DNA of 64,000 nt from Nannocystaceae bacterium ST9. Lineage in GTDB: Bacteria > Myxococcota_A > Polyangia > Nannocystales > Nannocystaceae. Each line of letters opens with the position of its first letter. Position 1 is the stretch's first letter. Where the stretch lies: contig JBLWFJ010000001.1 in NCBI GenBank assembly GCA_048320885.1, positions 5,825,697 to 5,889,696 on the forward strand, given 5' to 3'. The position numbers and the translations under genes are program-made. The notes beneath the pieces are model-generated. The model was not told the DNA's origin, did no database searches, and saw nothing but the letters and a program-made list of their open reading frames with translations. Positions 9,792-23,342 of the stretch are shown here, piece after piece.

Positions 9792-11201
9792 TCAGGCTCG
9801 CGAGCGTCGCCGCCGAGCCAACCCGAGCAGCCCGAACAACCCCGCGAGCAGGCCCGCGCCGGTCGGCGTCGGCTCCGTGGTCGCGCAGCCCTTCGCGGTC
9901 GCGCCCGGCTTCTCGTCGCTGCCGCGATAGATCCCGTCGCCACCACCCTCGCCGCCGGAGCCACCGCCCTCGCCGGCCGAGCTGCCGCCACCTTCGTCTC
10001 CGTCGCCGCCGACCGAGCTCGCGCCGCCCTCGTCGTCGCCCTCGCCCCCGTCACCATCGCCGCCGGCGGTGCCGAACTTCTCTTCGCGCTTCTTCTGCTG
10101 GTCGGCCTTGTACTTGATGTAGCTCTCCGGCAGGTCGGGCAGGGTCTGGAGCATCCGCGGGCGGACGTCGGACAGCTTCTTCCACGCGCCCGGGCTCGGG
10201 ACCGCGCCGCCGCCGGCCGGCTTCTGCACGCCGAGGATGTAGAGCGCTCGCCGGTTGCGGACCTCGTCGACGCTGTCGCCGGTCTCGACCGCCAGGCCGC
10301 GCTCGCCCATGCCGGCGTAGTAGATCTCGCACCACGCCCCCTTGTCGAAGAAGTACTTGGCGATCGCCTTGGCCCGATCTTCGGACAGCTTCTGGTTGTC
10401 GCCGCCGTTGCCGACCGTGTCGGTGTAGCCGACGATGTAGAGCTGGGCCGAGAGGTTGCCGTTGACGGCCAGGTTGGCCTTGTCGAGCCCGGCGAGCTCG
10501 TGGACCAGGACCGCGAACGCCTCGGCGACCTTGGGCTCTTCGTCGGGCTTGATGATCGCCTTGCCCGAGTCGAAGTTGACCTCGGTGTGGGGGATGTCGA
10601 CCGCCCAGGGCACCCGCGTGTCGGTGTACGAGAACCCGGTGTCGTCCTCGCCGGTGACCTTGATCATGAACACCTCGCGGTCGGTGTTCCACTTCATCTC
10701 GAAGGTCTGGCCGGCCTCGATCACCTCGTCGGTGATCAGCTTCTCGGTGATCAGGTCGCCGTCGGTGTCGAAGACCTGCAAGGTCCGCGAGCTGATCGTG
10801 AAGGGCGTCTTGTACTTGATGGTCTGGCGATCGACGATGTCGGTGCGATCGCTGAGCAGCTCGAACGCGCCTTTCTTGCCGCCGGCGATCGGCTTTTGGA
10901 CTTCGAAGCTGCCGTTGGTGAACGCCTCGTTGGCCTCGATCTCGATGTCGTACGAGACCTGGCGGTCCTTCTGCTTCCAGGTGATCTTGGTCGGCTTGTT
11001 GGCCTTGATGCTGACGGTTTTGCTCAGCTCGCTGCCGTCCGAGCCGGTGATCTTGACCTTGACTTCGGCGAGCGGCTCGTCGGAGGTCAGCTCGACCCAG
11101 GCGGTGCCGCTCTCGTCGGTCTGGCCGGAGTATTGCCAGCCGAAGCCGCCGAGCATCATGAAGAGGGCGAGCAGCGGGGCGGTGAGGGATGCGATGGCCA
11201 T
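9792..11201 (-). CDS. OmpA/MotB-domain surface protein with Gly/Asp-rich linker and MYXO-CTERM sorting tail
   Basis: N-terminal signal MAIASLTAPLLALFMMLGG. OmpA_C-like peptidoglycan-binding motif YIVGYTDTVGNGGDNQKLSEDRAKAIAKYFFDKG. G/D/E-rich low-complexity linker. C-terminus GCATTEPTPTGAGLLAGLFGLLGLARRRRSRA matches the MYXO-CTERM pattern (Cys, then hydrophobic stretch, then Arg-rich tail). Confidence 0.8.
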   Translation of the reverse strand: MAIASLTAPLLALFMMLGGFGWQYSGQTDESGTAWVELTSDEPLAEVKVKITGSDGSELSKTVSIKANKPTKITWKQKDRQVSYDIEIEANEAFTNGSFEVQKPIAGGKKGAFELLSDRTDIVDRQTIKYKTPFTISSRTLQVFDTDGDLITEKLITDEVIEAGQTFEMKWNTDREVFMIKVTGEDDTGFSYTDTRVPWAVDIPHTEVNFDSGKAIIKPDEEPKVAEAFAVLVHELAGLDKANLAVNGNLSAQLYIVGYTDTVGNGGDNQKLSEDRAKAIAKYFFDKGAWCEIYYAGMGERGLAVETGDSVDEVRNRRALYILGVQKPAGGGAVPSPGAWKKLSDVRPRMLQTLPDLPESYIKYKADQQKKREEKFGTAGGDGDGGEGDDEGGASSVGGDGDEGGGSSAGEGGGSGGEGGGDGIYRGSDEKPGATAKGCATTEPTPTGAGLLAGLFGLLGLARRRRSRA

Positions 11202-11276: not shown

Positions 11277-11642
11277 TCAGGTCTTCGCACGCTGATCGTG
11301 CCGGACCTCGATGATCGTGTGGATTCCGCCCCGAACCAGGAAGTCGCCCTCGACGACCATCCAGCGCGGATCGGTCGCGGCGACCAGATCATCGAGGATC
11401 TGGTTGGTGACCGCCTCGTGGAACGCCCCCTGATCGCGGTAGGTCCACAGGTAGAGCTTGAGCGCCTTGAGCTCGACGCAGCGCTGATCGGGGCAGTAGC
11501 GGATCCGAATGGTCGCGAAGTCCGGCTGGCCCGTGAGCGGGCACAGGCAGGTGAACTCCGGGCACTCGAAGCGGATCTCGAAGTCCCGCTCGGGCCTGGG
11601 GTTGGGGAAGGTCTCGAGCGCTCGGGAAGGCTGGGTCGCCAC
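11277..11642 (-). CDS. queF: NADPH-dependent 7-cyano-7-deazaguanine (preQ0) reductase QueF, type I
   Basis: [24 protein letters not shown]...ELKALKLYL motifs; 121 aa. Confidence 0.85.
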
Positions 11643-11805: not shown

Positions 11806-14800
11806 ATGAGCATCTCACCTCCCTCTCCGGTCGATCGCCTGCATCCGGTGCTCTTCGAGCTGTGGCTCCCCAACGGGCCGAACATCACCTGGCAGGTGGT
11901 GCGCCTGCACGGGATCGAGGCCCTCTCGACGCCCTACGAGTTCGTGCTCGATCTGATCACCGACGATCCCTTGGCCAGCTACGAGGAGATGCTCGGGGCT
12001 GACGCCGAGCTGCTGCTCGATCGCAACGGCGTGGTGCGGGTCGTCTACGGGATCATCGACGAGGTCCAGGCGGTGATGTCGGCCGAGTCGCGGGTCGCGA
12101 GCGCGGGGCTGGTCGTGCGCGCGCGGATCGTTCCGGCGTTCAAGCTGCTCGATCAGCAGCTCGACACCCGCTTCTTCGCCGGCCAGACCGTGGTCGAGAT
12201 CGTCCGCGATGTCCTGACCGCCGCGCTCGAGCCCTACCAGCGGACGATCGACGCGAGCGCGAGCGTCAAGGGCACCTACGCCAAGCGCGACTACTGCGTG
12301 CAGTTCCGCGAGACGACCTTCGCGTTCTGCAGCCGGATCCTCGAGGAAGAGGGCATCAGCTACCAGTTCGTCAACGACGACGACGAGCACAAGGAGAAGC
12401 TGGTCCTGATCGACAGCAACGCGGATTACCGCGAGGTCGAGCTGCTGGTCGCCGACGCGATCCCGATCGTGCTCAGCCGGCCCGACGAGCTCGACCGCGA
12501 GTCGATCCAGGCGTTCGACTGGCGAGACGCGCGGACGCCCAACCGCGTGCTGACCCGCGGCTACAACTTCAAGGTCGCGACCACGCCCGACGAGGGCAGC
12601 GCGGAGCGGACCGACCCGCACAACCCCGGCACCCGCGAGCAGTTCCTCGACGACGATCGCCGGCAGATCGTCGACGATCCGATCAACGATCCCGAGGCCC
12701 AGAGCTTCACCGGGGCCGACCTCGCCCAGCGCGTGCCGCTGGCCGAGCGGCTGCTGCAACTGCACACCCAGGAGTCGGCGATCGGCCAGGGCCGGGCCAA
12801 CGCGATCGGGTTCGGGCCCGGCCGGACCTTCACGCTCGGCGAGCACCCGCAGGCCTCGCTCGATCACCACCGCTTCTTGCTGACGCGGGTGGTCCACGAG
12901 GGCGCGATCGGGGGCAGCTCGGGCTCGCCCGAGCGCTCGTACGCCAACCGCTTCGACTGCGTCCCGGTCGAGCACGAGCATCGCCCGGCGCTGCGGACCG
13001 CCAAGCCGCGCGTGTACGGGATCCAGACCGGCGTGGTCGTCGGTCGGGCGCAAGACGAGATCTACACCGATCAATTCGGGCGGATTCGGGTCAAGTTCCA
13101 CCGCGATCGCCACAGCGGCAACGACGAGCAGGCCTCGTGCTGGATCCGCGTCGCCCAGGTCTGGGCCGGCTCGGGGTTCGGCGCGGTCGTGATCCCGCGG
13201 GTCGGCATGGAGGTCGTGGTGTCGTTCGTCGACGGCAACCCCGACTGCCCGCTGGTGACCGGCTGCGTCTACGACAGCCAGAACATGCCGCCCTATCCGC
13301 TGCCGGCGGAGATGACCAAGACCACGTTCAAGACCGCGTCGAGCCCGGGCGGCGAGGGGTTCAACGAGCTGCGCTTCGAGGACGCGCACGGGTCCGAGCA
13401 GGTGTTCATCCATGCCCAGCGGCGGATGGACGTGCGGGTCCGCGGCAGCCTCTACGAGACCTGCGGAGGCAGCCGCGAGGAGCGAGTCGGCTGGGAGCGC
13501 GGCGACGATCAGGGCGGCGACCACAACACGCTGGTCCACAAGGACGTCAACCATCACGTCAAGGAGATCCGCTACACCAAGGTCGAGAAGGAGCAGTACG
13601 AGACGGTCATGCTCGACCTGATCGAGGACTTCCAGACCAAGCACATGGTTCTGGTCGGCGAGGTCAGCCAGCTCAGCGCGCCCAAGGTCGTGGTCGAGGC
13701 CAGCGACAAGATCAGCCACAAGGCCGGGGCGATCCTGGTGACCGGCAGCTCGACGGTCGACATCAAGGGCGGCGGCAAGGTCGCGATCGAGAGCAACAAC
13801 GCGATCGAGATGAAGGTCGGCGGCAGCTTCATCTCGATCACGCCGGGCGGGATCGCGATCCAGGGCGTGTCGGTCCGGATCAACAGCGGCGGCGGGGTCG
13901 GTCCGGCCAGCGAGGGCGAGGCCGCGGTCTCGGTCGAGATGCTCGATCCGCTCGACGCGCTCGGGGCCGACGACGGCCAGATCCATCACGGTGGCGGCGG
14001 GGGTGGGGGAGGCGGCCGGACCCGCACGGGTCGCACGCTCGATCCTCATCACGCGCCGCCGATGCAGCCCCCGCCTCCGCCTCCGCCGGGCCACCCGACG
14101 GTCCAGCCCGACGGGACGCTGCGGCAGTTCCTGACCATCGAGTGGGTCGAGGTCGAGACCTGGTGCAGCGAGCCGGCGACCCTGCGCGGGACCACCCAGG
14201 GCTACACCGACGGCGACACCGAGTCGGCCGACGTCCGCAACACCAGCGACGGCGCGGTCCAGCGCGCGCAGACCCTGACGATCACCAGCAACGCGTACAG
14301 CCAGGCGTTCGACGTGGTCAACCTGCTGCCGCGCCGGGTCGGGGCCAACTTCGAGACCGAGCGGACGCTCGACGCGATCGCGGTCGGCCAGACCACGCCG
14401 ACGGCGATCCGCCTGCGCTTCATCCCGACCCTGACCTCGACCCACTGCACGATCAACAGCTCGCACTTCGACCTCTCGGTGACCAACTACGAGGCGCTGA
14501 TGGGCGGGACGATCAACTACGTGCCGGGGTGGATCCAGTTCATCATTCAGCTCGGCGCGACCGTGCCGGCCGGCACCGGCGGCAACTGTGGGGTCAACTT
14601 CGGGACCCCGACCGCCGGCAGCTTCAGCGGGACCGACTGGCGCTACGCCAAGCGCAGCACGACCACCGGCGGGCTGCTCTACTGGAACGGGACCGCGTGG
14701 ACGGCCGTGCCGGCGACCTGGTCGGATCCGGCCAACGTGCTGCTCTACCCGATCGCGATCTGGATCGAGGGCGGCACCAACCACACGCAGTTCGGGACCA

Positions 14801-15324
14801 CGGCCTGGCCCGAGGCGATCCCGGCCTGGGGCGCGACCGAGACCACGCTCGCGACCACCACGCTGGCGACCTGGACGACCAACATCAACGCGACTTGGAC
14901 TGGCAAGTTCGACCTCAAGCGGGTCGAGTGCCGAAGCACCGACGCGCAGTGCTGCCGCTACAAGACTCGCTGCAGCGTGACCTTCGTGCAGGTCGCGGTG
15001 AAGGGCAGCGGCATCGTGCTCGCGGCCAACAACGCCCGCTCGAACGCCGGCGTCTGGTCGCTCGGCGACACCCGGGCCGGCATGCCGCCGCACGAGTTCG
15101 GCCACCACCTCGGCAACCCCGACGAGTATGCCGGCGGCGTCGGCATCGACGCGAGCGTCAACACCGACGGCGCGACCGCGGGCATCGACCCCAACTCGAT
15201 CATGGGCGCCAACCTGAGCACTGTGAAGCGACGCCACTACAACACGATCTGCAAGCACCTGGCCGCGATGGTCAGCACGCAGTTCGGCCGGACCTACACC
15301 TACAACGCCGTGCCGGTCGTCTGA
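11806..15324 (+). CDS. vgrG: Type VI secretion spike protein VgrG (TssI) with glycine/proline-rich linker and C-terminal HExxH zinc-metallopeptidase-like effector domain (an evolved VgrG)
   Basis: The gp27/gp5 core is unmistakable: RVAQVWAGSGFGAVVIPRVGMEVVVSFVDGNPDCPLVTGCVYDSQNMPPYPLPAEMTKTTFKTASSPGGEGFNELRFEDAHGSEQVFIHAQRRMD. A beta-helix repeat region (ISHKAGAILVTGSSTVDIKGGGKVAIESNNAIEMKVGGSFISITPGGIAIQG) follows, then a G9/P8 linker. The C-terminal ~430 aa extension ends ...GMPPHEFGHHLGNPDEY...IDPNSIMGANL, i.e. HExxHxxGxxD followed by a Met-turn-like SIMG. Confidence 0.9.
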   Translation: MSISPPSPVDRLHPVLFELWLPNGPNITWQVVRLHGIEALSTPYEFVLDLITDDPLASYEEMLGADAELLLDRNGVVRVVYGIIDEVQAVMSAESRVASAGLVVRARIVPAFKLLDQQLDTRFFAGQTVVEIVRDVLTAALEPYQRTIDASASVKGTYAKRDYCVQFRETTFAFCSRILEEEGISYQFVNDDDEHKEKLVLIDSNADYREVELLVADAIPIVLSRPDELDRESIQAFDWRDARTPNRVLTRGYNFKVATTPDEGSAERTDPHNPGTREQFLDDDRRQIVDDPINDPEAQSFTGADLAQRVPLAERLLQLHTQESAIGQGRANAIGFGPGRTFTLGEHPQASLDHHRFLLTRVVHEGAIGGSSGSPERSYANRFDCVPVEHEHRPALRTAKPRVYGIQTGVVVGRAQDEIYTDQFGRIRVKFHRDRHSGNDEQASCWIRVAQVWAGSGFGAVVIPRVGMEVVVSFVDGNPDCPLVTGCVYDSQNMPPYPLPAEMTKTTFKTASSPGGEGFNELRFEDAHGSEQVFIHAQRRMDVRVRGSLYETCGGSREERVGWERGDDQGGDHNTLVHKDVNHHVKEIRYTKVEKEQYETVMLDLIEDFQTKHMVLVGEVSQLSAPKVVVEASDKISHKAGAILVTGSSTVDIKGGGKVAIESNNAIEMKVGGSFISITPGGIAIQGVSVRINSGGGVGPASEGEAAVSVEMLDPLDALGADDGQIHHGGGGGGGGGRTRTGRTLDPHHAPPMQPPPPPPPGHPTVQPDGTLRQFLTIEWVEVETWCSEPATLRGTTQGYTDGDTESADVRNTSDGAVQRAQTLTITSNAYSQAFDVVNLLPRRVGANFETERTLDAIAVGQTTPTAIRLRFIPTLTSTHCTINSSHFDLSVTNYEALMGGTINYVPGWIQFIIQLGATVPAGTGGNCGVNFGTPTAGSFSGTDWRYAKRSTTTGGLLYWNGTAWTAVPATWSDPANVLLYPIAIWIEGGTNHTQFGTTAWPEAIPAWGATETTLATTTLATWTTNINATWTGKFDLKRVECRSTDAQCCRYKTRCSVTFVQVAVKGSGIVLAANNARSNAGVWSLGDTRAGMPPHEFGHHLGNPDEYAGGVGIDASVNTDGATAGIDPNSIMGANLSTVKRRHYNTICKHLAAMVSTQFGRTYTYNAVPVV

Positions 15325-15340: not shown

Positions 15341-16303
15341 ATGAGTGATCCGCAAGACGAAGCCTTTCGGCTCGACTTTCGTGTCCGCGGTGGCGAGCTG
15401 ATGGCCAGCCTGCCCGGACACTTCCAGACCACGATCGAGATCGCCGAGTACGGCACCTGGCTGCGCGTGCGCAGCGACGAGAAGCTCGCGATGCTGGTCT
15501 TGACCCGCCACAACGGCGACCTGGTCGAGCGGCCGGTCGGGCTGTTTCGCATGCGGCTCGACGATCGCCAGCTCGCCGAGCTGCGCGGCGCGGTCGAGTC
15601 GACCGGGTGGACCAAGCTGCCGAGGCCCTCGCGCGGCGACGTCACGGCCAGCCAGCTCTCGATCGACTACCTGCGCGGGGGCTTGCTGATCCGGCGCGAC
15701 TTCAACGCGCGCAGCCGCGAGTTCATCGTCGCGATCTGGCCGCTGATGGAGCAGCTCAACGCGCTGATGGGCACGCTGCTGACTCGGCCGGCCGGGGCGA
15801 TCGCGGTCGCGGTCGCGAGCGAGCCCGATCCCGACGACCCCGGTCGGCGCGTCTCGAAGTTGATCCTCTCGAACCCCGGCAGTTGGCCGGTCGTGCTGAC
15901 CGATCCACGCGTGGCCAAGCCGGCGCACGTCCAGCGCTCGCGCGCGCGGATCCTGGTCGCGCTCGCGCCCAGGGAGACGCCGGGGATGATGGCCGTGCCG
16001 CCGCGCTGGGTGAGCGTCGAGCTGCCTGCGCTGGCCGAGGGCGCGCCCGAGCTCCAGACGTTGCAAGCCGGCGGCAAGCTCGAGATCGCGGTGCCCTGGC
16101 AGGCGCCCGGTCCCGGGGCCTACGTGATGCAGGGCGTGTGGGACGACTACGCCGGACCGATCACGCCGGCCGACGATCATCTGCCGATCATGCCGCTGCG
16201 CGGCGACGACGAGCCGGCGCCGACCGGCGCGGTGTATCCCGTGCGCGGGGCCGCGTTCTCGGTCTACGCTTCGTTCGTGATCGAGCCCCCGAAGCAAAAA
16301 TGA
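15341..16303 (+). CDS. VgrG-island paralogous protein A (no signal peptide); candidate immunity or adaptor protein
   Basis: 320 aa; no recognisable known domain. ~45% identical over ~270 aa to the next ORF (shared blocks WLRVRSDE..LVLTRHNGD.VERPVG.FR, VVLTDPRV, YPVRGAAFS.YASF). Its stop overlaps the next start (ATGA). Confidence 0.6.
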   Translation: MSDPQDEAFRLDFRVRGGELMASLPGHFQTTIEIAEYGTWLRVRSDEKLAMLVLTRHNGDLVERPVGLFRMRLDDRQLAELRGAVESTGWTKLPRPSRGDVTASQLSIDYLRGGLLIRRDFNARSREFIVAIWPLMEQLNALMGTLLTRPAGAIAVAVASEPDPDDPGRRVSKLILSNPGSWPVVLTDPRVAKPAHVQRSRARILVALAPRETPGMMAVPPRWVSVELPALAEGAPELQTLQAGGKLEIAVPWQAPGPGAYVMQGVWDDYAGPITPADDHLPIMPLRGDDEPAPTGAVYPVRGAAFSVYASFVIEPPKQK

Positions 16304-17373
16304 CCGACGCCACCCGACGCGAGTTTCTGCTGGCCGGCCTCGGCGTGGTGGGTGTTTCGATCGGCTGTCGCTCGGAGGAGTCCGAGGCCCCGCCGGGATC
16401 GAGCAAGCGCCGAGCCGAGAGCGAGTCCCCGAGCGATACAGCCGTGAACGATCCAGCCGTGAACGATCCGCCCGCGTCGAACCAACTCGTGCGCTTCCGA
16501 CTCGACTTTCGCTCGGCCGGCGGCCACGTGATGGCCCAGGACGGCACGCAGGCGATCCACGAGTGGACGAGCTGGCTGCGGGTGCGCAGCGACGAGCGAG
16601 TGGCCGAGCTGGTGTTGACCCGGCACAACGGCGACATGGTCGAGCGCCCGGTCGGCCGCTTTCGCCAGACGCTCGACGACGCCGGGCTGCTCGCGCTCCA
16701 GCAGGCGATCGTCGCGACGAAGTGGGCCGAGCTGCCCGAGCCGCAGATCGGCGATCCGACCGCGAACTGGCTGACCTTCGAGTATGTCGCGGGCGAGACG
16801 GTGATCCGTCGCGAGTTCAGCGCGAGCGCCCAGGCGTTCATGACCGCGATCAGTCCCTTGCTGCTGGTGCTCAATGCGGCCATGAGCGCGCCGCTGGCCG
16901 GGCCGCTGGCCGCGATCGCGGTCGTGGCCGAGGCCGCGCGCGCCAAGCCGGGCAAGCCGGTGATCTTGACCATGCGCCTGCGCAACCTCGGGACCGAGCC
17001 GGTGGTGATCACCGATCCTCGCGTGCCGGCGAGCGGCGACGCGGGCCCACGGGCGCGGCTGCTGGTCGCCGCCAAGCCCGGCGAGATGCACATGCCCTCG
17101 TGGACCGCGATCGATCTCGACCCGCTGCCGGCCGGCTCGCCCGAGGTTCGGGTGCTCGAGGCCGGCGGCGAGCTCGAGCTCGCCACGAGCTGGACCCCGA
17201 CGCTGAAGGGCGCCTGCCTGCTGCAAGCGGTCTGGCAGGACTACGCCGGACCGATCCGTGCCGCGCCCGATCAGCTCGGCTTCTTCCCTCTGCCCGAGGC
17301 GGGCCCGAGCGCGGCGGGCCCCTATCCCGTGCGTGGGGCCGCGTTCTCGAGCTACGCGAGCTTCGATGCCTGA
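16300..17373 (+). CDS. VgrG-island paralogous protein B with Tat/lipoprotein-type signal; candidate periplasmic immunity protein
   Basis: ATG at 16300, in frame with the tail of track ORF 15607..17373. N-terminus MTDATRREFLLAGLGVVGVSIGC is a twin-arginine-like signal plus lipobox. A low-complexity linker with AVNDP x2 follows, then the same conserved body as paralog A. Confidence 0.6.
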   Translation: MTDATRREFLLAGLGVVGVSIGCRSEESEAPPGSSKRRAESESPSDTAVNDPAVNDPPASNQLVRFRLDFRSAGGHVMAQDGTQAIHEWTSWLRVRSDERVAELVLTRHNGDMVERPVGRFRQTLDDAGLLALQQAIVATKWAELPEPQIGDPTANWLTFEYVAGETVIRREFSASAQAFMTAISPLLLVLNAAMSAPLAGPLAAIAVVAEAARAKPGKPVILTMRLRNLGTEPVVITDPRVPASGDAGPRARLLVAAKPGEMHMPSWTAIDLDPLPAGSPEVRVLEAGGELELATSWTPTLKGACLLQAVWQDYAGPIRAAPDQLGFFPLPEAGPSAAGPYPVRGAAFSSYASFDA

Positions 17374-17409
17374 TAGGATGCCTGATGGGACGCGTGATAG
17401 GATGATCGC

Positions 17410-17703: not shown

Positions 17704-18891
17704 GTGATCGAGCCGAGCGAGCTCGAGCGCCTGCTCGCGCAGGGCCGCGGCGCCGGCTGGCTCGCGGCGCGCGAGCTCGGCGAGCCGGCGATCGAGCTCG
17801 TGCTGCGCTGCGTGATCACGGATCCACGCTGGGATGGCCAGGTCGAGTCGCGCGACGCGTACTACGCCTCGCTCTTGCTCGCCCTTTCCGCGGATCCCCG
17901 GCCGATCGTCGACGCGTTGGTCGGCCGCGATCCCGGAGACGTCGCGCTGGCCCGCAACGTGCTGATCGAGCTGGCCTGGCGTGGCCACGCTGGCGCGCTG
18001 GCGGCCGTGGTCGAGCGCGTGCGTGCGGGCAGCGAGACCGCCGATGATCTGTGGCTGGCCTCCGATCTCGACGGGAGCTTCGCCGCGCGGGTCCACGCGC
18101 TCGCGGGGCGCACGATAGCGACGCATGAAGCCGCGCCCGTGCGCGCGCGCCCGCAGTTGGATCCCGAGCTCGGCATCGCCGAGCTGATCGCGATCGCGAC
18201 CGAGTCGACCGACACGTCGCGTTGGCACGCCGCCCGGCGCTTGGGCGAGCTCGACCAGCTCGACCATGCCGCGCTGATCGACGCCGCCGAGGCATACCTG
18301 CGATCGGAGTGTGGCGTGCCCTCGGGCCAGCGAAACCGACGCGGTGAGCATCTGCGCCGGGTCGGTTGGCTGCGCTACCTCGAGGCGCTCCCGGCCGCGC
18401 GGACGCTCCCGCTCGCCCGCGCGTGGGCCCGCGCCGAGTGGCCGCTGAGCCTCGCGGCCGACAAGCTCTTGGTTCGTCACGCCGAGCCCGAGGATCGCCC
18501 ACTGCTCGAGCAGCTCGGCGGCGAGGCCCTGGCCACGCTCGACCGCTACCGGCTCTGCTCGATGGTCGACGCGCTCGCTCGGCTCGCCGCGCCCGAGTCG
18601 ATCGAATTCCTGATCGCCGTCTACACCACGATCGACTACTCGTACGCCCGCGAGCGAGCCTGCGTCGCCCTGCTCGCGCACGCCGATCATCTCGCGGTCC
18701 GGCCCCTGCTGGTCGAGGCGCTGTGGGACTGCGAGGCCGGCACGCGCGAGGATGCGTGCGGGGCCGTCGATCCGCGCGCGAACGCGGCCCGCCTGCGCGA
18801 GCTCGCCGACGATCCCTGCGAGCGCCCCTCGGTCCGCGAGGCCGCCCGCTCGTGTGGCGCCGAGCCGTGCTGGGGTACAATCTCGCAGTGA
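17704..18891 (+). CDS. HEAT/ARM-like repeat protein of the VgrG-PAAR island; candidate T6SS effector, chaperone or immunity protein
   Basis: GTG start 3 nt after the PAAR stop. 395 aa Ala/Leu/Arg-rich helical repeats (...LLVEALWDCEAGTREDACGAVDPRANAARLRELADDPCERPSVREAARSC...). No catalytic motif recognised. Its stop overlaps the next start (GTGA). Confidence 0.5.
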   Translation: MIEPSELERLLAQGRGAGWLAARELGEPAIELVLRCVITDPRWDGQVESRDAYYASLLLALSADPRPIVDALVGRDPGDVALARNVLIELAWRGHAGALAAVVERVRAGSETADDLWLASDLDGSFAARVHALAGRTIATHEAAPVRARPQLDPELGIAELIAIATESTDTSRWHAARRLGELDQLDHAALIDAAEAYLRSECGVPSGQRNRRGEHLRRVGWLRYLEALPAARTLPLARAWARAEWPLSLAADKLLVRHAEPEDRPLLEQLGGEALATLDRYRLCSMVDALARLAAPESIEFLIAVYTTIDYSYARERACVALLAHADHLAVRPLLVEALWDCEAGTREDACGAVDPRANAARLRELADDPCERPSVREAARSCGAEPCWGTISQ

Positions 18892-20926
18892 GGCACGAGG
18901 CCATCGTCCGCCACATCGAAGCGGCCAGCCCAGAGCAGCTTCGGTTGCTCGCGCGGCTGGCCCTCGAGCTGGCGGGCTACCCGATCCCTCGCACGACCGA
19001 TGGCCCCTACGATGGAGGCATCGATCTGGTGGTCGAGACCGCTGCTGGCCGGGCCTGGCCGATGGCGGTGGCGGTGTCGGTCGAGAAAAACTGGCAGAGC
19101 AAGCTACGCAAGGACGTAGCCAAGGCCCGCCAGGATCCCAGCATCAAGAAGTTCTCTTCATCAGCTCGCGCCGGATCCCCGAGGGCACATTTCGGGCCGT
19201 CCAGCAGGAGCTCGAGGGCAGCTCGGGTCTCTCCGTCGATCGCCTCGATCAACAAGGGATCGCCGATCTCGTGATGGATGGCGAAGGCGCGTTGCCGAGG
19301 TTGCTGGACATTCTCGATCTGCCCACCTCCGACGGCCGAGTGCCCGCGACGCCGGAAGATCGCCGGCGGGATGCCATGTATGCGTATGCCTTTTTCGCGC
19401 CCGAGGTCCACGATTTCCGCAAGGCCATACGGGATCGCAGCCTCATCGTCGCGCTCGCGCAGGCGGGGGGCAGCGCCACCATTGGGGGTCTATGTGTCGA
19501 TGCGGCGCGGCTGCTCGGCATCGACGACAAAGACGCGATGAGCCTCCTGCACGACATCGACCGGCTTCGCCAGGTCGGTCGCATCCAAGGGCCCAATGGC
19601 ACGGTCGTGCTGGCCGCTGAAGAGCGCGAGACGATGGCAGCACTCGCGGCCTTGCGTCGGCGCGAGGAGGCAGCGCTGCGCGACCGACTCGAGGCCCACG
19701 TGGACAGCGCCGGGCTCGAGCCGCGCGAGGATGCGCTCGACGTGCTCTGGCAAGACCTCGGCCCGCTCTTGGCGCGACACATCGGCGCGCCCGAAGCCCT
19801 CGACCACCTTCGCTCGCGCGTGCGACGACTTCGGCGCGAGCTCGAGAGCCATGGCTTGCCCGCGGGTGAGCGCGGCAACCAATTCATCGCCGAAGCCATC
19901 GCGCTGGCGAGCGACTCCGAGCTAGGCAAGTCGTTGGCGACTGGCAGCGTCTATCAGGCGCTCGTGCGGCTCGACCGAAGCGCGCTGCTGCGGGCGCTCG
20001 ATGCTTCGTCGCTGGCGATCGTGGTCGACGCGTCGGTCGCGATACCGATGCTCTGTGCGCTCTTCCACGGAAGCGTGGAGCAGCGCTTCTTTCTCGTCGC
20101 CGAGGAATTTCACCGTCGGTCGCGACACGCAGGTGTCGCGCTGCAATTACCGGATGTCTGGCTGGAAGAGATGGCCTCGCACTTGCTCCGGGCGCCCGAC
20201 TATGAGCCATTCTTGGACGATCTGGATCTGCGTGATTCAGGCAATGCCTATGTTGCCTATTTCGTCGCATCACGGCGGGTCGACTTTGCCGACTACTTGG
20301 CTCAATTTGGATTGACGGAATCGCTCAGGCGTGACGTTCGCCCCGACACTCGACGTTCACTCGAGACCTTCTTGCGTCGTCAGCTCAGCCACTATGGGAT
20401 CGAGGTCGTCGCCACGGGCGGCGTTTCCAAACACCATCTCGAGCGAGCACAGCGAAGCTGGACATGGGCCTGTCACGATCTCGGTATCCTCGATCGCGCG
20501 ACGATCTTGGCCGAGCACGACGTCCGAGTGCTCGCATGGTCGTCTGCGAGTACCGAGCGGGATCCGAGCCGCGCACTCCTGATCGCCACTTGGGATCGCG
20601 CCATTCGTCGCGCGCATCCCGAGACGGACTCAGGTGGCGCGCTCGATCCGCTAGCGATCGGCGAGCTCCTGTCCTTCGTCGCGGGGGATCGTGCGCCCGC
20701 AATGACCGCTCGCTTTGCATCCTCGTGGCTCGGCGAGGCCGAGGCCGAGCGCGGCGCCAGGATCCTCGACGAGCTGGTCCACATCGAGCACGAGCACCTG
20801 TCGGACGCCCAGCTGGTCCGGCAAGCGCGAGCCTTCAAGCAGACCTACGTGCGCGAGCGAGAAGACCAGCCGAGCGCGAAGGCCCTGGGGCGGGCCTGGG
20901 AGACCTTCAAGCGCAAGCCAGCATGA
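18888..20926 (+). pseudogene. Mrr-like PD-(D/E)xK restriction-endonuclease-domain protein with a large C-terminal domain of unknown function; reading frame interrupted by a -1 frameshift near 19140-19150
   Basis: GTG 18888 opens frame 0: VRHEAIVRHIEAASPEQLRLLARLALELAGYPIPRTTDGPYDGGIDLVVETAAGRAWPMAVAVSVEKNWQSKLRKDVAKARQDPSIKK. This is the Mrr_cat-type D..D(GGIDL)..E.K core. The sensible continuation VLFISSRRIPEGTFRAVQQELEGSSGLSVDRLDQQGIADLV... and the remaining ~590 aa are in frame 2 (track ORF 18752..20926). Both frames are open across 18888-19274, so the exact shift site is undetermined. Confidence 0.55.
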
Positions 20927-21032: not shown

Positions 21033-23342
21033 ATGTTGATCCATCGCTTCGACGAGGTCGCCCGTGCTCGCCCCGACGACGTCGCGCTGGTGTCCTCGCG
21101 CGGCTCGCTGACCTACGCGCAATTGCGTGAGCGCGCGGCCGGCCTGGCTCGCGAGCTGCGGGCGAGGGGAGTCGGCCGCGAGACCCCGGTCGGCGTCGGG
21201 GTGCCGCGCTCGATCGAGTCGATGATCGCGGTGCTCGGCGTGCTGTGGGCCGGCGGGGCCTATGTCCCGATCGACCCGGTCTACCCGCCCGAGCGCCAGC
21301 GATCGATCGCCGCCGACGCCCAGATCGCCGTGCTGGTGATCGCCAGCGAGCTGGCCGGCGCGCCCGCGTGGGCGTCGTCGATCGTCGATCTCTCGCGGCT
21401 TCTCGATTCGACCCCCGGCTCGATCGCCGAGCCAGTCGAGCTGCCCGAGACCGCGCCCGAGGACCTGCTCAACATCCTGTTCACCTCGGGCAGCACCGGC
21501 CGCCCCAAGGGCGTGCTCGGGACCCACGCGGCCATGCTCAATCGGCTCGCGTGGGCCTGGTCGAGCTTCCCCTTCGCCGCCGGCGAGGTGCTCGGTCACC
21601 GCAGCTCGCTCAACTTCGTCGACGCCGGGCCCGAGATGTTCACCGCGCTGCTGCGCGGGGTCCCGACCGCGATCGTGCTGCACGACGAGCAGGCCGACCT
21701 CGGGCGCTTCGTCGCCGCGCTCGAGCAGCATCGCGTCTCGCGGCTGACCGTCGTGCCCTCGATCCTCGCCGCGCTGCTGCGCAGCGTGCCCGAGCTCGCC
21801 GCCCGGCTGGCTGCGCTGCGCCTGTGGATCACCAGCGGCGAAGAGCTCACGCTGCCGCTGCTGCGCCGGTTTCGCGAGGTGTTGCCGGGCGCGACGCTGC
21901 TCAACATCTACGGCTCGACCGAGGTCACCGGCGACGTCACCTGTGCGGTGTTCGAACCCGGCGCGCCGCTGCCGAGCGAGCGCGTGCCGATCGGCAAGCC
22001 GATGGCCGACGCCGAGCTGCTGGTCGTCGATCGCGAGGGCCACGTGCTGCCCGAGGGCGAGACCGGCGAGCTGTTCGCGGCCGGGCCGGTGCTCGCTCGC
22101 GGCTATCACCAGCGCCCGCTCGAGGAGGCGGTTCGCTTTCCTCGTCACCCGACCCGGCCGAGCGAGCGCTGCTTTCGAACCGGCGATCTGGTCCGCCGCG
22201 AGCCCGATGGATCGTTCCTGTTCCTCGGGCGCGTCGACAACCTGGTCAAGATCCTCGGCGTGCGGGTCGAGCTCGAAGAGATCGAGCGTTGCCTGCGAGC
22301 CGCCTGCCCGGCGTTGCGCGACATCGCGGCCGTGCTCGCCGAGGGCGAGCGCCTGGTCGCGTTCGTGACCCCCGAGGACGCCGACGTCGAGGCCCTGCGC
22401 GCGGCGGCGGCTCGACTCTTGCCCGCGGTCATGAACCCGGCCCGCTACCTGCCGATCGCCGCGCTCCCGCTGCTGCCCAACGGCAAGGTCGATCGCGGCG
22501 TGCTGGCGGCCCGCGTTCGGATCACGCCGCGCGACATCCCGGCCGAGCGGCGCCCGCAGACCGCCAGCGAGCGGCGGGTCGCCGCGCTCTGGGCCGGCCT
22601 GCTGCGCCGCGACGACATCGCCCGCGACGACAGCTTCGCCCGGCTCGGCGGCGACTCGCTGACCCTCGCCGAGCTGCTCGCCACGCTCGCCGATCCGCGC
22701 GTCGATCTCGGACTCGCGCGCGACGGCACGCTCGAGCAGATCGGGCTCGCGCTCGACGGCGTGACCACGAGCGAGCGCGCGAACGAGACCGCACTGGCGA
22801 TCACCCTCACGCCGCTCGGCGAGCCGGCGGCCAGCGACGACGAGGTCGTGGCGATGTTCGTCGAGGCCTCGGCCGACCCCGCGCTGTGTGCCAACACCGA
22901 GCTGCCCGGCAACATGGACCGCGAGCGCGCGCGCGACTACTGCCGCAACAGCGACGGCGTGGTCATTCGGCTCGAGGGCGTGCCGGTCGGCGCGGGCCTG
23001 ATCCAGCACCACCCCAACCTCGGCGAGGGTGTCGAGGTCCCGGCCGGCGCGGTCCAGCTCGACGAGTGGCTGCTGCCGCGCTGGCGCGGGCGAGGGATCC
23101 TCGGCGAGGCGGGAGCGTGGCCGCAGCTCTCGGCGTGGATGGCCGAGCGCTTCGACACCGAGGTCAGCGTGGTCTGGGCCGACCATGTCGCGATGCTGAC
23201 GATCCTGCGCGCGCGCGGGTACACCCGGGTCGGTCGGAGCTACTGGAAGAGCAGGCCGGAGGGGGATGGGACCGAGGGGTGGTGCGAGGTGTGGATCTAC
23301 GATCTTCGGCCGCACCGACGTTCGCAGATGATCCTTCGATGA
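21033..23342 (+). CDS. Stand-alone NRPS-like protein: adenylation domain, peptidyl-carrier (thiolation) domain and C-terminal GNAT-type N-acyltransferase-like domain
   Basis: Adenylation core motifs LNILFTSGSTGRPKGV (A3), FRTGDLV (A7), GRVDNLVKILGVRVELEEIE (A8), LPNGKVDR (A10). Carrier motif FARLGGDSLTLAEL. Last ~200 aa GNAT-like (...GVVIRLEGVPVGAGLIQHHP...WRGRGILGEAG...RARGYTRVG). No condensation or thioesterase domain. Confidence 0.75.
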   Translation: MLIHRFDEVARARPDDVALVSSRGSLTYAQLRERAAGLARELRARGVGRETPVGVGVPRSIESMIAVLGVLWAGGAYVPIDPVYPPERQRSIAADAQIAVLVIASELAGAPAWASSIVDLSRLLDSTPGSIAEPVELPETAPEDLLNILFTSGSTGRPKGVLGTHAAMLNRLAWAWSSFPFAAGEVLGHRSSLNFVDAGPEMFTALLRGVPTAIVLHDEQADLGRFVAALEQHRVSRLTVVPSILAALLRSVPELAARLAALRLWITSGEELTLPLLRRFREVLPGATLLNIYGSTEVTGDVTCAVFEPGAPLPSERVPIGKPMADAELLVVDREGHVLPEGETGELFAAGPVLARGYHQRPLEEAVRFPRHPTRPSERCFRTGDLVRREPDGSFLFLGRVDNLVKILGVRVELEEIERCLRAACPALRDIAAVLAEGERLVAFVTPEDADVEALRAAAARLLPAVMNPARYLPIAALPLLPNGKVDRGVLAARVRITPRDIPAERRPQTASERRVAALWAGLLRRDDIARDDSFARLGGDSLTLAELLATLADPRVDLGLARDGTLEQIGLALDGVTTSERANETALAITLTPLGEPAASDDEVVAMFVEASADPALCANTELPGNMDRERARDYCRNSDGVVIRLEGVPVGAGLIQHHPNLGEGVEVPAGAVQLDEWLLPRWRGRGILGEAGAWPQLSAWMAERFDTEVSVVWADHVAMLTILRARGYTRVGRSYWKSRPEGDGTEGWCEVWIYDLRPHRRSQMILR

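Follow-up and report, generated by a model that had tools for sequence, protein, structure and literature searches.

This analysis concerns two adjacent paralogous genes, A and B, that lie between a toxin-bearing vgrG gene and a PAAR gene of a type VI secretion system (T6SS). They are located in a 64,000-nucleotide stretch of DNA (the window; G+C content = 70%) from Nannocystaceae bacterium ST9, a marine-type myxobacterium, in which the product of A is 100% identical to ACNOYE_24310. The genes and features of this part of the window are as follows.

11806-15324 (+): VgrG, 1172 aa
11806-13905 (+): spike core of VgrG, gp27/gp5-like (Phage_GPD, 4.6e-53; Gp5_trimer_C, 1.8e-20; Phage_base_V, 2.2e-13)
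14146-15324 (+): C-terminal toxin module of VgrG (residues 781 to 1172, ~390 aa), a predicted metzincin-like zinc peptidase
15341-16303 (+): A, 320 aa
16300-17373 (+): B, 357 aa
16300-16368 (+): predicted signal peptide of B, with the twin-arginine motif TRREFLL (RR at 16315-16320) and the lipobox VSIGC (codon of Cys23 at 16366-16368)
16369-16494 (+): low-complexity linker of B from the lipid anchor to the folded domains, without Met
16495-17370 (+): folded region of B, homologous to A, which keeps all 17 family-invariant residues
17410-17700 (+): PAAR spike-tip protein, 96 aa (PAAR_motif, 4.9e-22)

The preliminary description of this DNA had presented A and B as adjacent paralogues of 320 and 357 aa with an estimated identity of ~45%, without a recognisable known domain, and placed between an effector-bearing vgrG and a PAAR gene. 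Each of these points holds. The two proteins are 48% identical over 306 aa (BLASTP, E = 1e-76), the VgrG encoded upstream matches the profile TIGR03361 (4.9e-133) and carries the motif HEFGHHLGNPD, and the protein encoded downstream has a PAAR motif. The ATG of A follows the sequence GAGGAA and lies 16 nt after the vgrG stop codon, with no in-frame start upstream of it. The ATG of B overlaps the stop codon of A as ATGA. No further copies of the family are present in the window. Antisense open reading frames (ORFs) over A and B (341, 332, and 808 aa) were rejected as the usual artefacts of high-GC DNA; they are without homologues and have the wrong pattern of G+C at third codon positions (GC3). 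A short direct repeat (tgataggatg, two copies, window positions 17371-17404) occurs in the 36 nt that separate the stop codon of B from the start of PAAR and may be due to chance.

In Pfam and NCBIfam (E<=1), neither A nor B has a match except for one chance match to UTRA; among PDB sequences there is none for A, B, or the family profile, and 31 family members scanned singly against Pfam and NCBIfam gave nothing consistent. A match to Emfourin, a metalloprotease inhibitor, was seen in 1 of these 31 members (E = 0.009) and was dismissed as chance, as it is absent from the others even at E<=10. In the model of A, which is without a signal peptide, an N-terminal Mago-like α/β domain (approximately residues 1 to 146) is followed by a C-terminal β-sandwich (approximately residues 150 to 314). 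Foldseek matches of the major histocompatibility complex class I type (TM ~0.16) were not retained, as they reflect only a loose likeness in the form of a sheet-plus-helices platform with an Ig domain. Seventeen residues are invariant in both cytosolic and exported members of the family, including DPR (188-190), W-x-D-Y-x-G-P (267-273), and V-R-G-A (301-304), and A and B both retain 17 of the 17. This invariance across members of different localisation argues that A and B would bind the same kind of ligand.

Linkage of the family to a metzincin-like toxin module

The C-terminal module of VgrG is preceded by a Gly/Pro-rich linker. HEFGHHLGNPD spans residues 1096 to 1106 (nt 15091-15123), and together with the Met-turn SIMG it provides the metzincin signature, HExxHxxGxx(H/D) with a conserved Met-turn. 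Aspartate occurs as the third zinc ligand in this signature, as in snapalysin. The database contains 94 homologues of the module; in an alignment of 53 of them, H-E-x-x-H-x-x-G-x-x-D and the Met of SIMG are invariant (H316, E317, H320, D326, and M353). The best PDB sequence matches of the module profile are to snapalysin, exactly at the zinc motif (E ~0.03). By its sequence, the module is thus classed as a metzincin-like zinc peptidase. Many free-standing homologues combine the module with PG_binding_1, PG_binding_3, LysM, OmpA, or glycine-zipper domains and have no signal peptide. Such proteins have the features expected of toxins that are delivered and would act on the cell wall or within the periplasm, and the module of the window looks directed to the periplasm.

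To gather related loci, exact protein sequences were looked up and genomes and metagenomes were scanned, with a 14-sequence subset alignment of the family used for the search; family and toxin-module profiles served to annotate the loci. A first sequence search gave 39 close family matches. Membership by profile is much wider: in a search of 1.84 billion representatives, 202 members were found at E<=1e-3, and many of the distant ones carry signal peptides or lipoboxes.

In approximately 24 of 25 informative loci, the family gene either directly follows the toxin module on its 3' side or, as in two types of operon, comes two genes later. The preliminary description had suggested looking for co-occurrence of homologues with HExxH toxin genes, and it is this adjacency, conserved across genomes as in effector-immunity pairs, that was found. 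The linkage spans Myxococcota, Acidobacteriota, and other lineages, as well as three toxin architectures. Each VgrG found to be encoded immediately upstream of a family member has the same C-terminal module with its motif, at 37-92% identity to that of the window. In a second form (locus L030), a PAAR gene is followed by a gene for a LysM-OmpA-PG_binding_1-module protein, after which comes a family member that has a Sec signal (family match, E = 2.8e-47). In a third form, found on Bryobacteraceae and related contigs (L015 and L016-18), the order is a small ORF, the module with a Gly-zipper, DcrB/DUF1795, the family member, and DUF4123. One copy, in a metagenome-assembled genome labelled gammaproteobacterial (L004), is an orphan with a Tat signal and no Cys; orphan copies are common among immunity genes. 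The PAAR gene is kept 3' of the family gene or genes in L001, L003, L006, L007, L010, L019, L021, and L028.

The family tracks the toxin and not the spike, since the linkage holds for the VgrG-fused, the PAAR-adjacent, and the DUF1795/DUF4123-assisted forms of the cargo. For the known adaptor domains DUF4123, DUF1795, DUF2169, and DUF2875, there was no match to A or B at E<=1 and none in the 31 members at E<=10. As the family is linked to the toxin, coexists with known adaptors, and is mostly exported, a role as adaptor is unlikely and a role as cognate inhibitor or immunity protein is likely.

Two further arrangements were observed among these loci. The vgrG islands of the window type can be tandem: in L023 (1694-2746) a second VgrG gene lies directly 3' of the family gene, and in L001 (15675-19130) a second VgrG gene 4.7 kb downstream has its own exported family copy. 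In P0179, a metagenome representative of 745 aa, a single ORF comprises the C-terminal part of a VgrG with a truncated toxin module and a clade-5 family member, which is probably the result of a deletion, a frameshift, or a misassembly.

Export signal of B and the two compartments

The N terminus of B, MTDATRREFLLAGLGVVGVSIGC followed by RSEE, matches the twin-arginine translocation (Tat) consensus T-R-R-x-F-L and contains a lipobox. Signals were called by motif rules and conservation. By motif rules, B has the elements of a Tat lipoprotein, namely S/T-R-R-x-F-L-K, a hydrophobic region, and a lipobox Cys. An N terminus of this type is conserved in approximately 20 relatives, and the sequence CRSE at the lipobox Cys is also conserved; 15 of the 16 exported-type N termini scanned have the RR motif and the Cys, with RSE next in most. 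The orthologues of B (P0025, P0029, P0134, and the copy in L010) share its signal, and the same layout recurs in more distant clades. Upstream extension of P0013, P0017, P0022, P0015, and P0018 reveals in each case a conserved in-frame RR-plus-lipobox segment. Still more distant relatives have Sec or lipoprotein signals. A twin-arginine-like signal with lipobox and a low-complexity linker on the second ORF, with none on the first, had been noted in the preliminary description, and its conservation in relatives bears this out; B is therefore predicted to be a Tat-exported lipoprotein, with a signal that is real by the measure of conservation.

The linker of B contains a tandem duplication of 15 bp (16441-16470; gccgtgaacgatcca / gccgtgaacgatccg), which is perfect except for one position and encodes AVNDP twice. 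The 304-aa call of NCBI for B is probably too short, and the 357-aa reading is preferred because the signal is conserved in-frame in orthologues and in paralogous clades. The annotated starts of P0013, P0015, P0017, P0018, P0019, P0020, P0022, P0027, and P0030 (L001, L002, L004, L006, L008, and L022) all lie downstream of the Tat/lipobox segment; since gene callers start past this conserved signal, databases list exported proteins as cytosolic.

The family is divided into clades that differ in localisation.

Clade 1 (A and P0002-12): cytosolic
B clade (B and its orthologues): Tat lipoproteins
Clades 3 and 4 (P0013-23 and L021-23): Tat lipoproteins
Clade 5 (P0032-39), with a 27-aa insert: cytosolic

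B and most of its relatives carry export signals, and relatives of the toxin have peptidoglycan-binding domains, yet A and two clades are cytosolic. In six loci (the window, L003, L008, L010, L019, and L020) a cytosolic copy is followed by a Tat-lipoprotein copy. In some clade-5 loci (L005, L013, and L025), the cytosolic copy is accompanied by a lipoprotein of another type, which in L025 contains part of the C-domain of the family. Tat-lipoprotein copies stand alone in L002, L006, L021, L022, and L023 and at the second VgrG of L001.

The lipoprotein of the other two clade-5 loci was seen on two Enhygromyxa contigs (L005, 11017-11595; L013, 7050-7622), where a gene for a conserved lipoprotein of ~190 aa (192 aa) directly follows the clade-5 gene. 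This protein has a signal with lipobox and six Cys residues, no match in Pfam or NCBIfam, and no relation to the A/B family by hmmsearch --max. It is not present in the window and is a candidate for an alternative periplasmic immunity protein.

The standalone Tat-lipoprotein copies and members of the same clades have a Met 7-10 residues past the lipobox Cys (10 of 10), which gene callers took as the start in six cases. A Shine-Dalgarno-like motif (GAGGA, AGGAG, or GAGG) is located 6-10 nt upstream of this Met in five of seven DNA contexts, and a distant Sec-lipoprotein member has a Met at +25. In the paired copies and the rest of the B clade, no Met occurs for 26-55 residues (9 of 9), and in the window B there is none in the whole linker. 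In a rough neighbour-joining tree, the B clade is sister to clade 1, and the two together are nested next to the clades with the internal Met. These patterns suggest that one gene with two starts and two separate genes are solutions to the same need, with dual starts predicted for the former, and the cytosolic form looks like a conserved need. The position of clade 1 and the B clade beside the internal-Met clades is suggestive of subfunctionalisation, in which an ancestral gene with two starts would have been duplicated into a cytosol-only gene and a lipoprotein-only gene.

Roles of A and B

We consider it probable, with some reserve, that the A/B family is a dedicated binding partner, and most likely an inhibitor, of the metzincin-like VgrG toxin module, with B as the periplasmic immunity protein and A as a cytosolic binder of the toxin. 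We are more confident than this of B as a periplasmic immunity protein and less so of what precisely A does. B would be made with its twin-arginine signal and lipobox, exported, and lipid-anchored so as to face the periplasm, where it would neutralise toxin modules injected by sister cells, as in canonical T6SS immunity. The signal-less A would be translated immediately after VgrG and would bind the new toxin module in the cytoplasm of the producer, holding it latent and/or stable until the spike fires. A may protect the cytoplasm, or it may stabilise or activate the toxin in the manner of the cytosolic Tli protein discussed below.

The preliminary description had proposed a two-compartment immunity arrangement. 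The arrangement is the better of the two options offered there and fits well with the toxin linkage in ~24 of 25 loci, the three delivery formats, the conserved signal of B, and the periplasm-directed appearance of the toxin; the cytoplasmic copy may serve for protection or in another way. Its comment on the frequent duplication of immunity genes covers only part of the picture, since the two copies differ systematically in localisation and are therefore not redundant.

Several points weigh against the proposed roles. NCBI annotates B (P0027) as 304 aa from GTG 16459, after the signal. At four loci (the first VgrG of L001, L007, L024, and L029) only a cytosolic copy is in view; there, the immunity gene may be located in another place, or the cytosolic form may be enough. 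The inhibitor-like structural matches stand among many generic Ig and FN3 matches of similar score. The contrast in the internal Met (10 vs. 9 sequences) spans two or three clades and is non-independent, so that it is suggestive and not statistical, and the Met past the lipobox could be merely a conserved residue of the linker. Fusion of the toxin to peptidoglycan-binding domains is circumstantial with respect to a putative periplasmic substrate, and its periplasmic site of action is read from these fusions and from the signals of its partners. Physical binding of the toxin by A and B and inhibition of its peptidase are what we infer from the sequences, as are the role of the cytosolic copy and the two starts of the single-copy relatives.

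Among the other explanations, the one that deserves most attention agrees that B is an immunity protein, makes it the only one, and assigns to A a non-neutralising role as a foldase, activator, or loading chaperone of the toxin module, similar to cytosolic Tli or to a propeptide acting in trans. We regard this as unlikely, if by no means negligibly so: with its 48% identity to B and the full set of invariant residues, A would more simply be expected to bind in the same mode and therefore to inhibit. It is improbable that A and B represent a T6SS adaptor class of a new kind, with the task of loading or stabilising the spike, which the preliminary description had offered as an alternative. The position between vgrG and PAAR is a frequent one for adaptors; the 31 members, however, have no match to DUF4123, DUF1795, DUF2169, or DUF2875, most are exported lipoproteins or periplasmic proteins that would be unable to act on spike assembly in the cytoplasm, and the family also occurs beside non-VgrG toxin cargo that already has DUF1795 and DUF4123 genes of its own. 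The adaptor alternative is accordingly disfavoured.

The NCBI start of B would be correct if the signal were unused, in which case the 304-aa form would be right and the pair would be a tandem duplicate of a cytoplasmic immunity gene against a toxin that acts in the cytoplasm. In its favour are the NCBI call and the relatives in clades 1 and 5, which are clearly cytosolic. We nevertheless hold it to be very improbable, because the segment with RR and lipobox persists in-frame in clades that share only 40-70% identity, even where gene callers missed it, the ATG of B overlaps the stop codon of A, and relatives of the toxin have cell-wall-binding domains. The GTG at 16459 lies in the second copy of the 15-bp duplication, which makes its choice as the start arbitrary. 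The least probable explanation is that the function of the family has nothing to do with the toxin, for example that of an enzyme or a structural protein that hitch-hikes in the islands. It could draw on the missing domain matches and on the generic nature of the Mago-like and Ig-like folds, but it leaves the adjacency to the toxin module in ~24/25 loci, several lineages, and three architectures without a reason, and the family shows no catalytic-looking constellation of conserved His or Cys residues.

A wider proposal can be put forward, although only tentatively. Periplasm-acting toxins of this metzincin-like family may need a partner in the cytoplasm of the producer as well, as a trans-acting "propeptide" for folding and latency. 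This need would have been met three times in the family: by one gene with two starts, by duplication into cytosol-only and lipoprotein-only genes as in the window, and by a cytosolic copy combined with an unrelated lipoprotein.

Flanking genes and comparison with known systems

The genes on either side of the vgrG-A-B-PAAR segment are as follows.

9792-11201 (-): OmpA-like protein with a MYXO-CTERM tail
11277-11642 (-): QueF
17704-18891 (+): 395-aa cytosolic protein, whose gene starts 3 nt after the PAAR gene
18.9-21.0 kb: ~2.1 kb of additional DNA, which separates the 395-aa gene from the gene for a protein resembling a nonribosomal peptide synthetase (NRPS)
21033-23342 (+): NRPS-like adenylation/carrier protein

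Among the eighteen window genes scanned (~3.3-41 kb) there is no T6SS core gene, and the segment is thus described as an orphan vgrG island. Upstream, the protein encoded at 9792-11201 (-) has an Ig-like N-terminal region, an OmpA domain, an acidic tract rich in Gly, and, at its C terminus, a MYXO-CTERM sorting signal, whose match (20.0 bits) is exactly at the cut-off value. This gene and that of QueF show the same synteny upstream of vgrG in L001. Downstream, the 395-aa protein has a sole match, to HEAT_2, which is weaker than the cut-off (E = 0.019). Its gene follows PAAR in two sister loci only (59% identity in L001 and 56% in L003) and was not found in L010, L006, or L007. The ~2.1 kb at 18888-20926 (+) have no counterpart in the syntenic L001, L003, and L010 and read as a single gene that a frameshift near 19.1-19.2 kb has disrupted. 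Its N-terminal portion gives a weak match to the Mrr_cat restriction endonuclease family (E = 0.006) with a D...ExK motif, and the remaining 613 aa have no family match. Since its GC3 is below that of the neighbouring genes, it may be an acquired, decaying gene of defence type, or the break may be a sequencing error.

The Tpe-Tpi systems (P. aeruginosa VgrG2b/PA0261 and A. baylyi Tpe1-Tpi1) resemble that of the window in that a zinc metallopeptidase is fused to the C terminus of VgrG and a partner is encoded by a neighbouring gene. The metallopeptidase at the C terminus of VgrG2b works in the periplasm, and the periplasmic protein PA0261 neutralises it (PMC6899460). The Tpi partner, whose gene adjoins that of the toxin, acts by complex formation and, varying with the species, is soluble in the periplasm, resides in the inner membrane, or is a lipoprotein (PMC6899460). 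The window toxin and the C-terminal metallopeptidase of VgrG2b showed no relatedness in sequence or fold, and A and B do not have the conserved cysteines described for Tpi (PMC6899460).

Known T6SS adaptors with DUF4123 (Tap/Tec), DUF1795 (Eag), DUF2169, or DUF2875 (Tla3) are small and cytoplasmic, are encoded next to vgrG or PAAR, and serve a single effector (PMC6560169). A may resemble them in holding an effector before firing. The A/B family differs in that it has no sequence match to them, is mostly exported, and shares operons with DUF1795 and DUF4123. A DUF2875 domain common to Tli3 and Tla3 was considered as a precedent and dropped, as the paper did not bear it out. Protease-specific proteins that keep a peptidase latent or folded until its release offer another comparison, namely Acinetobacter CpaB with CpaA (PDB accession number 6o38; PMC4713064), the AsaP1 propeptide (2x3a/2x3b), and B. 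subtilis BsuPI (3isy); 6o38, 2x3a/2x3b, and 3isy were all among the structural matches of the toxin or partner models.

The closest functional precedent for A and B, by analogy, would be the Tle-Tli system of E. cloacae, in which the periplasmic lipoprotein Tli neutralises incoming Tle (bioRxiv 10.1101/2023.03.28.534661; PMC10294624). Cytosolic Tli, produced from internal start codons, is required to deploy active Tle, which it "paradoxically" activates (bioRxiv 10.1101/2023.03.28.534661; PMC10294624). The likeness would lie in a partner for two compartments, and the single-copy relatives of A and B show a conserved internal Met at which a cytosolic form might start. On the other hand, the toxin Tle is a phospholipase, and there is no relation between the protein families; in the window, the two forms are apparently two separate, diverged genes (48% identity), and the exported form has a Tat-type signal. 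If the proposed need for both a cytoplasmic and a periplasmic partner is real, the single observation on Tle and Tli would become a general rule that can be read from genomes.

The A/B family and its toxin form a new, previously unannotated putative T6SS effector/partner family, with ~200 cluster representatives at 50% identity in several phyla, and for several of its members the gene starts that hide export signals in public annotations have been corrected here. The two-compartment logic is already known from other systems. The pair of the window provides a natural experiment on a recent and surprising idea, according to which immunity proteins also take part, from the cytoplasm, in the deployment of their toxins: the two jobs are apparently split over two genes that could be deleted separately, which is much cleaner than the mutation of start codons within one gene.

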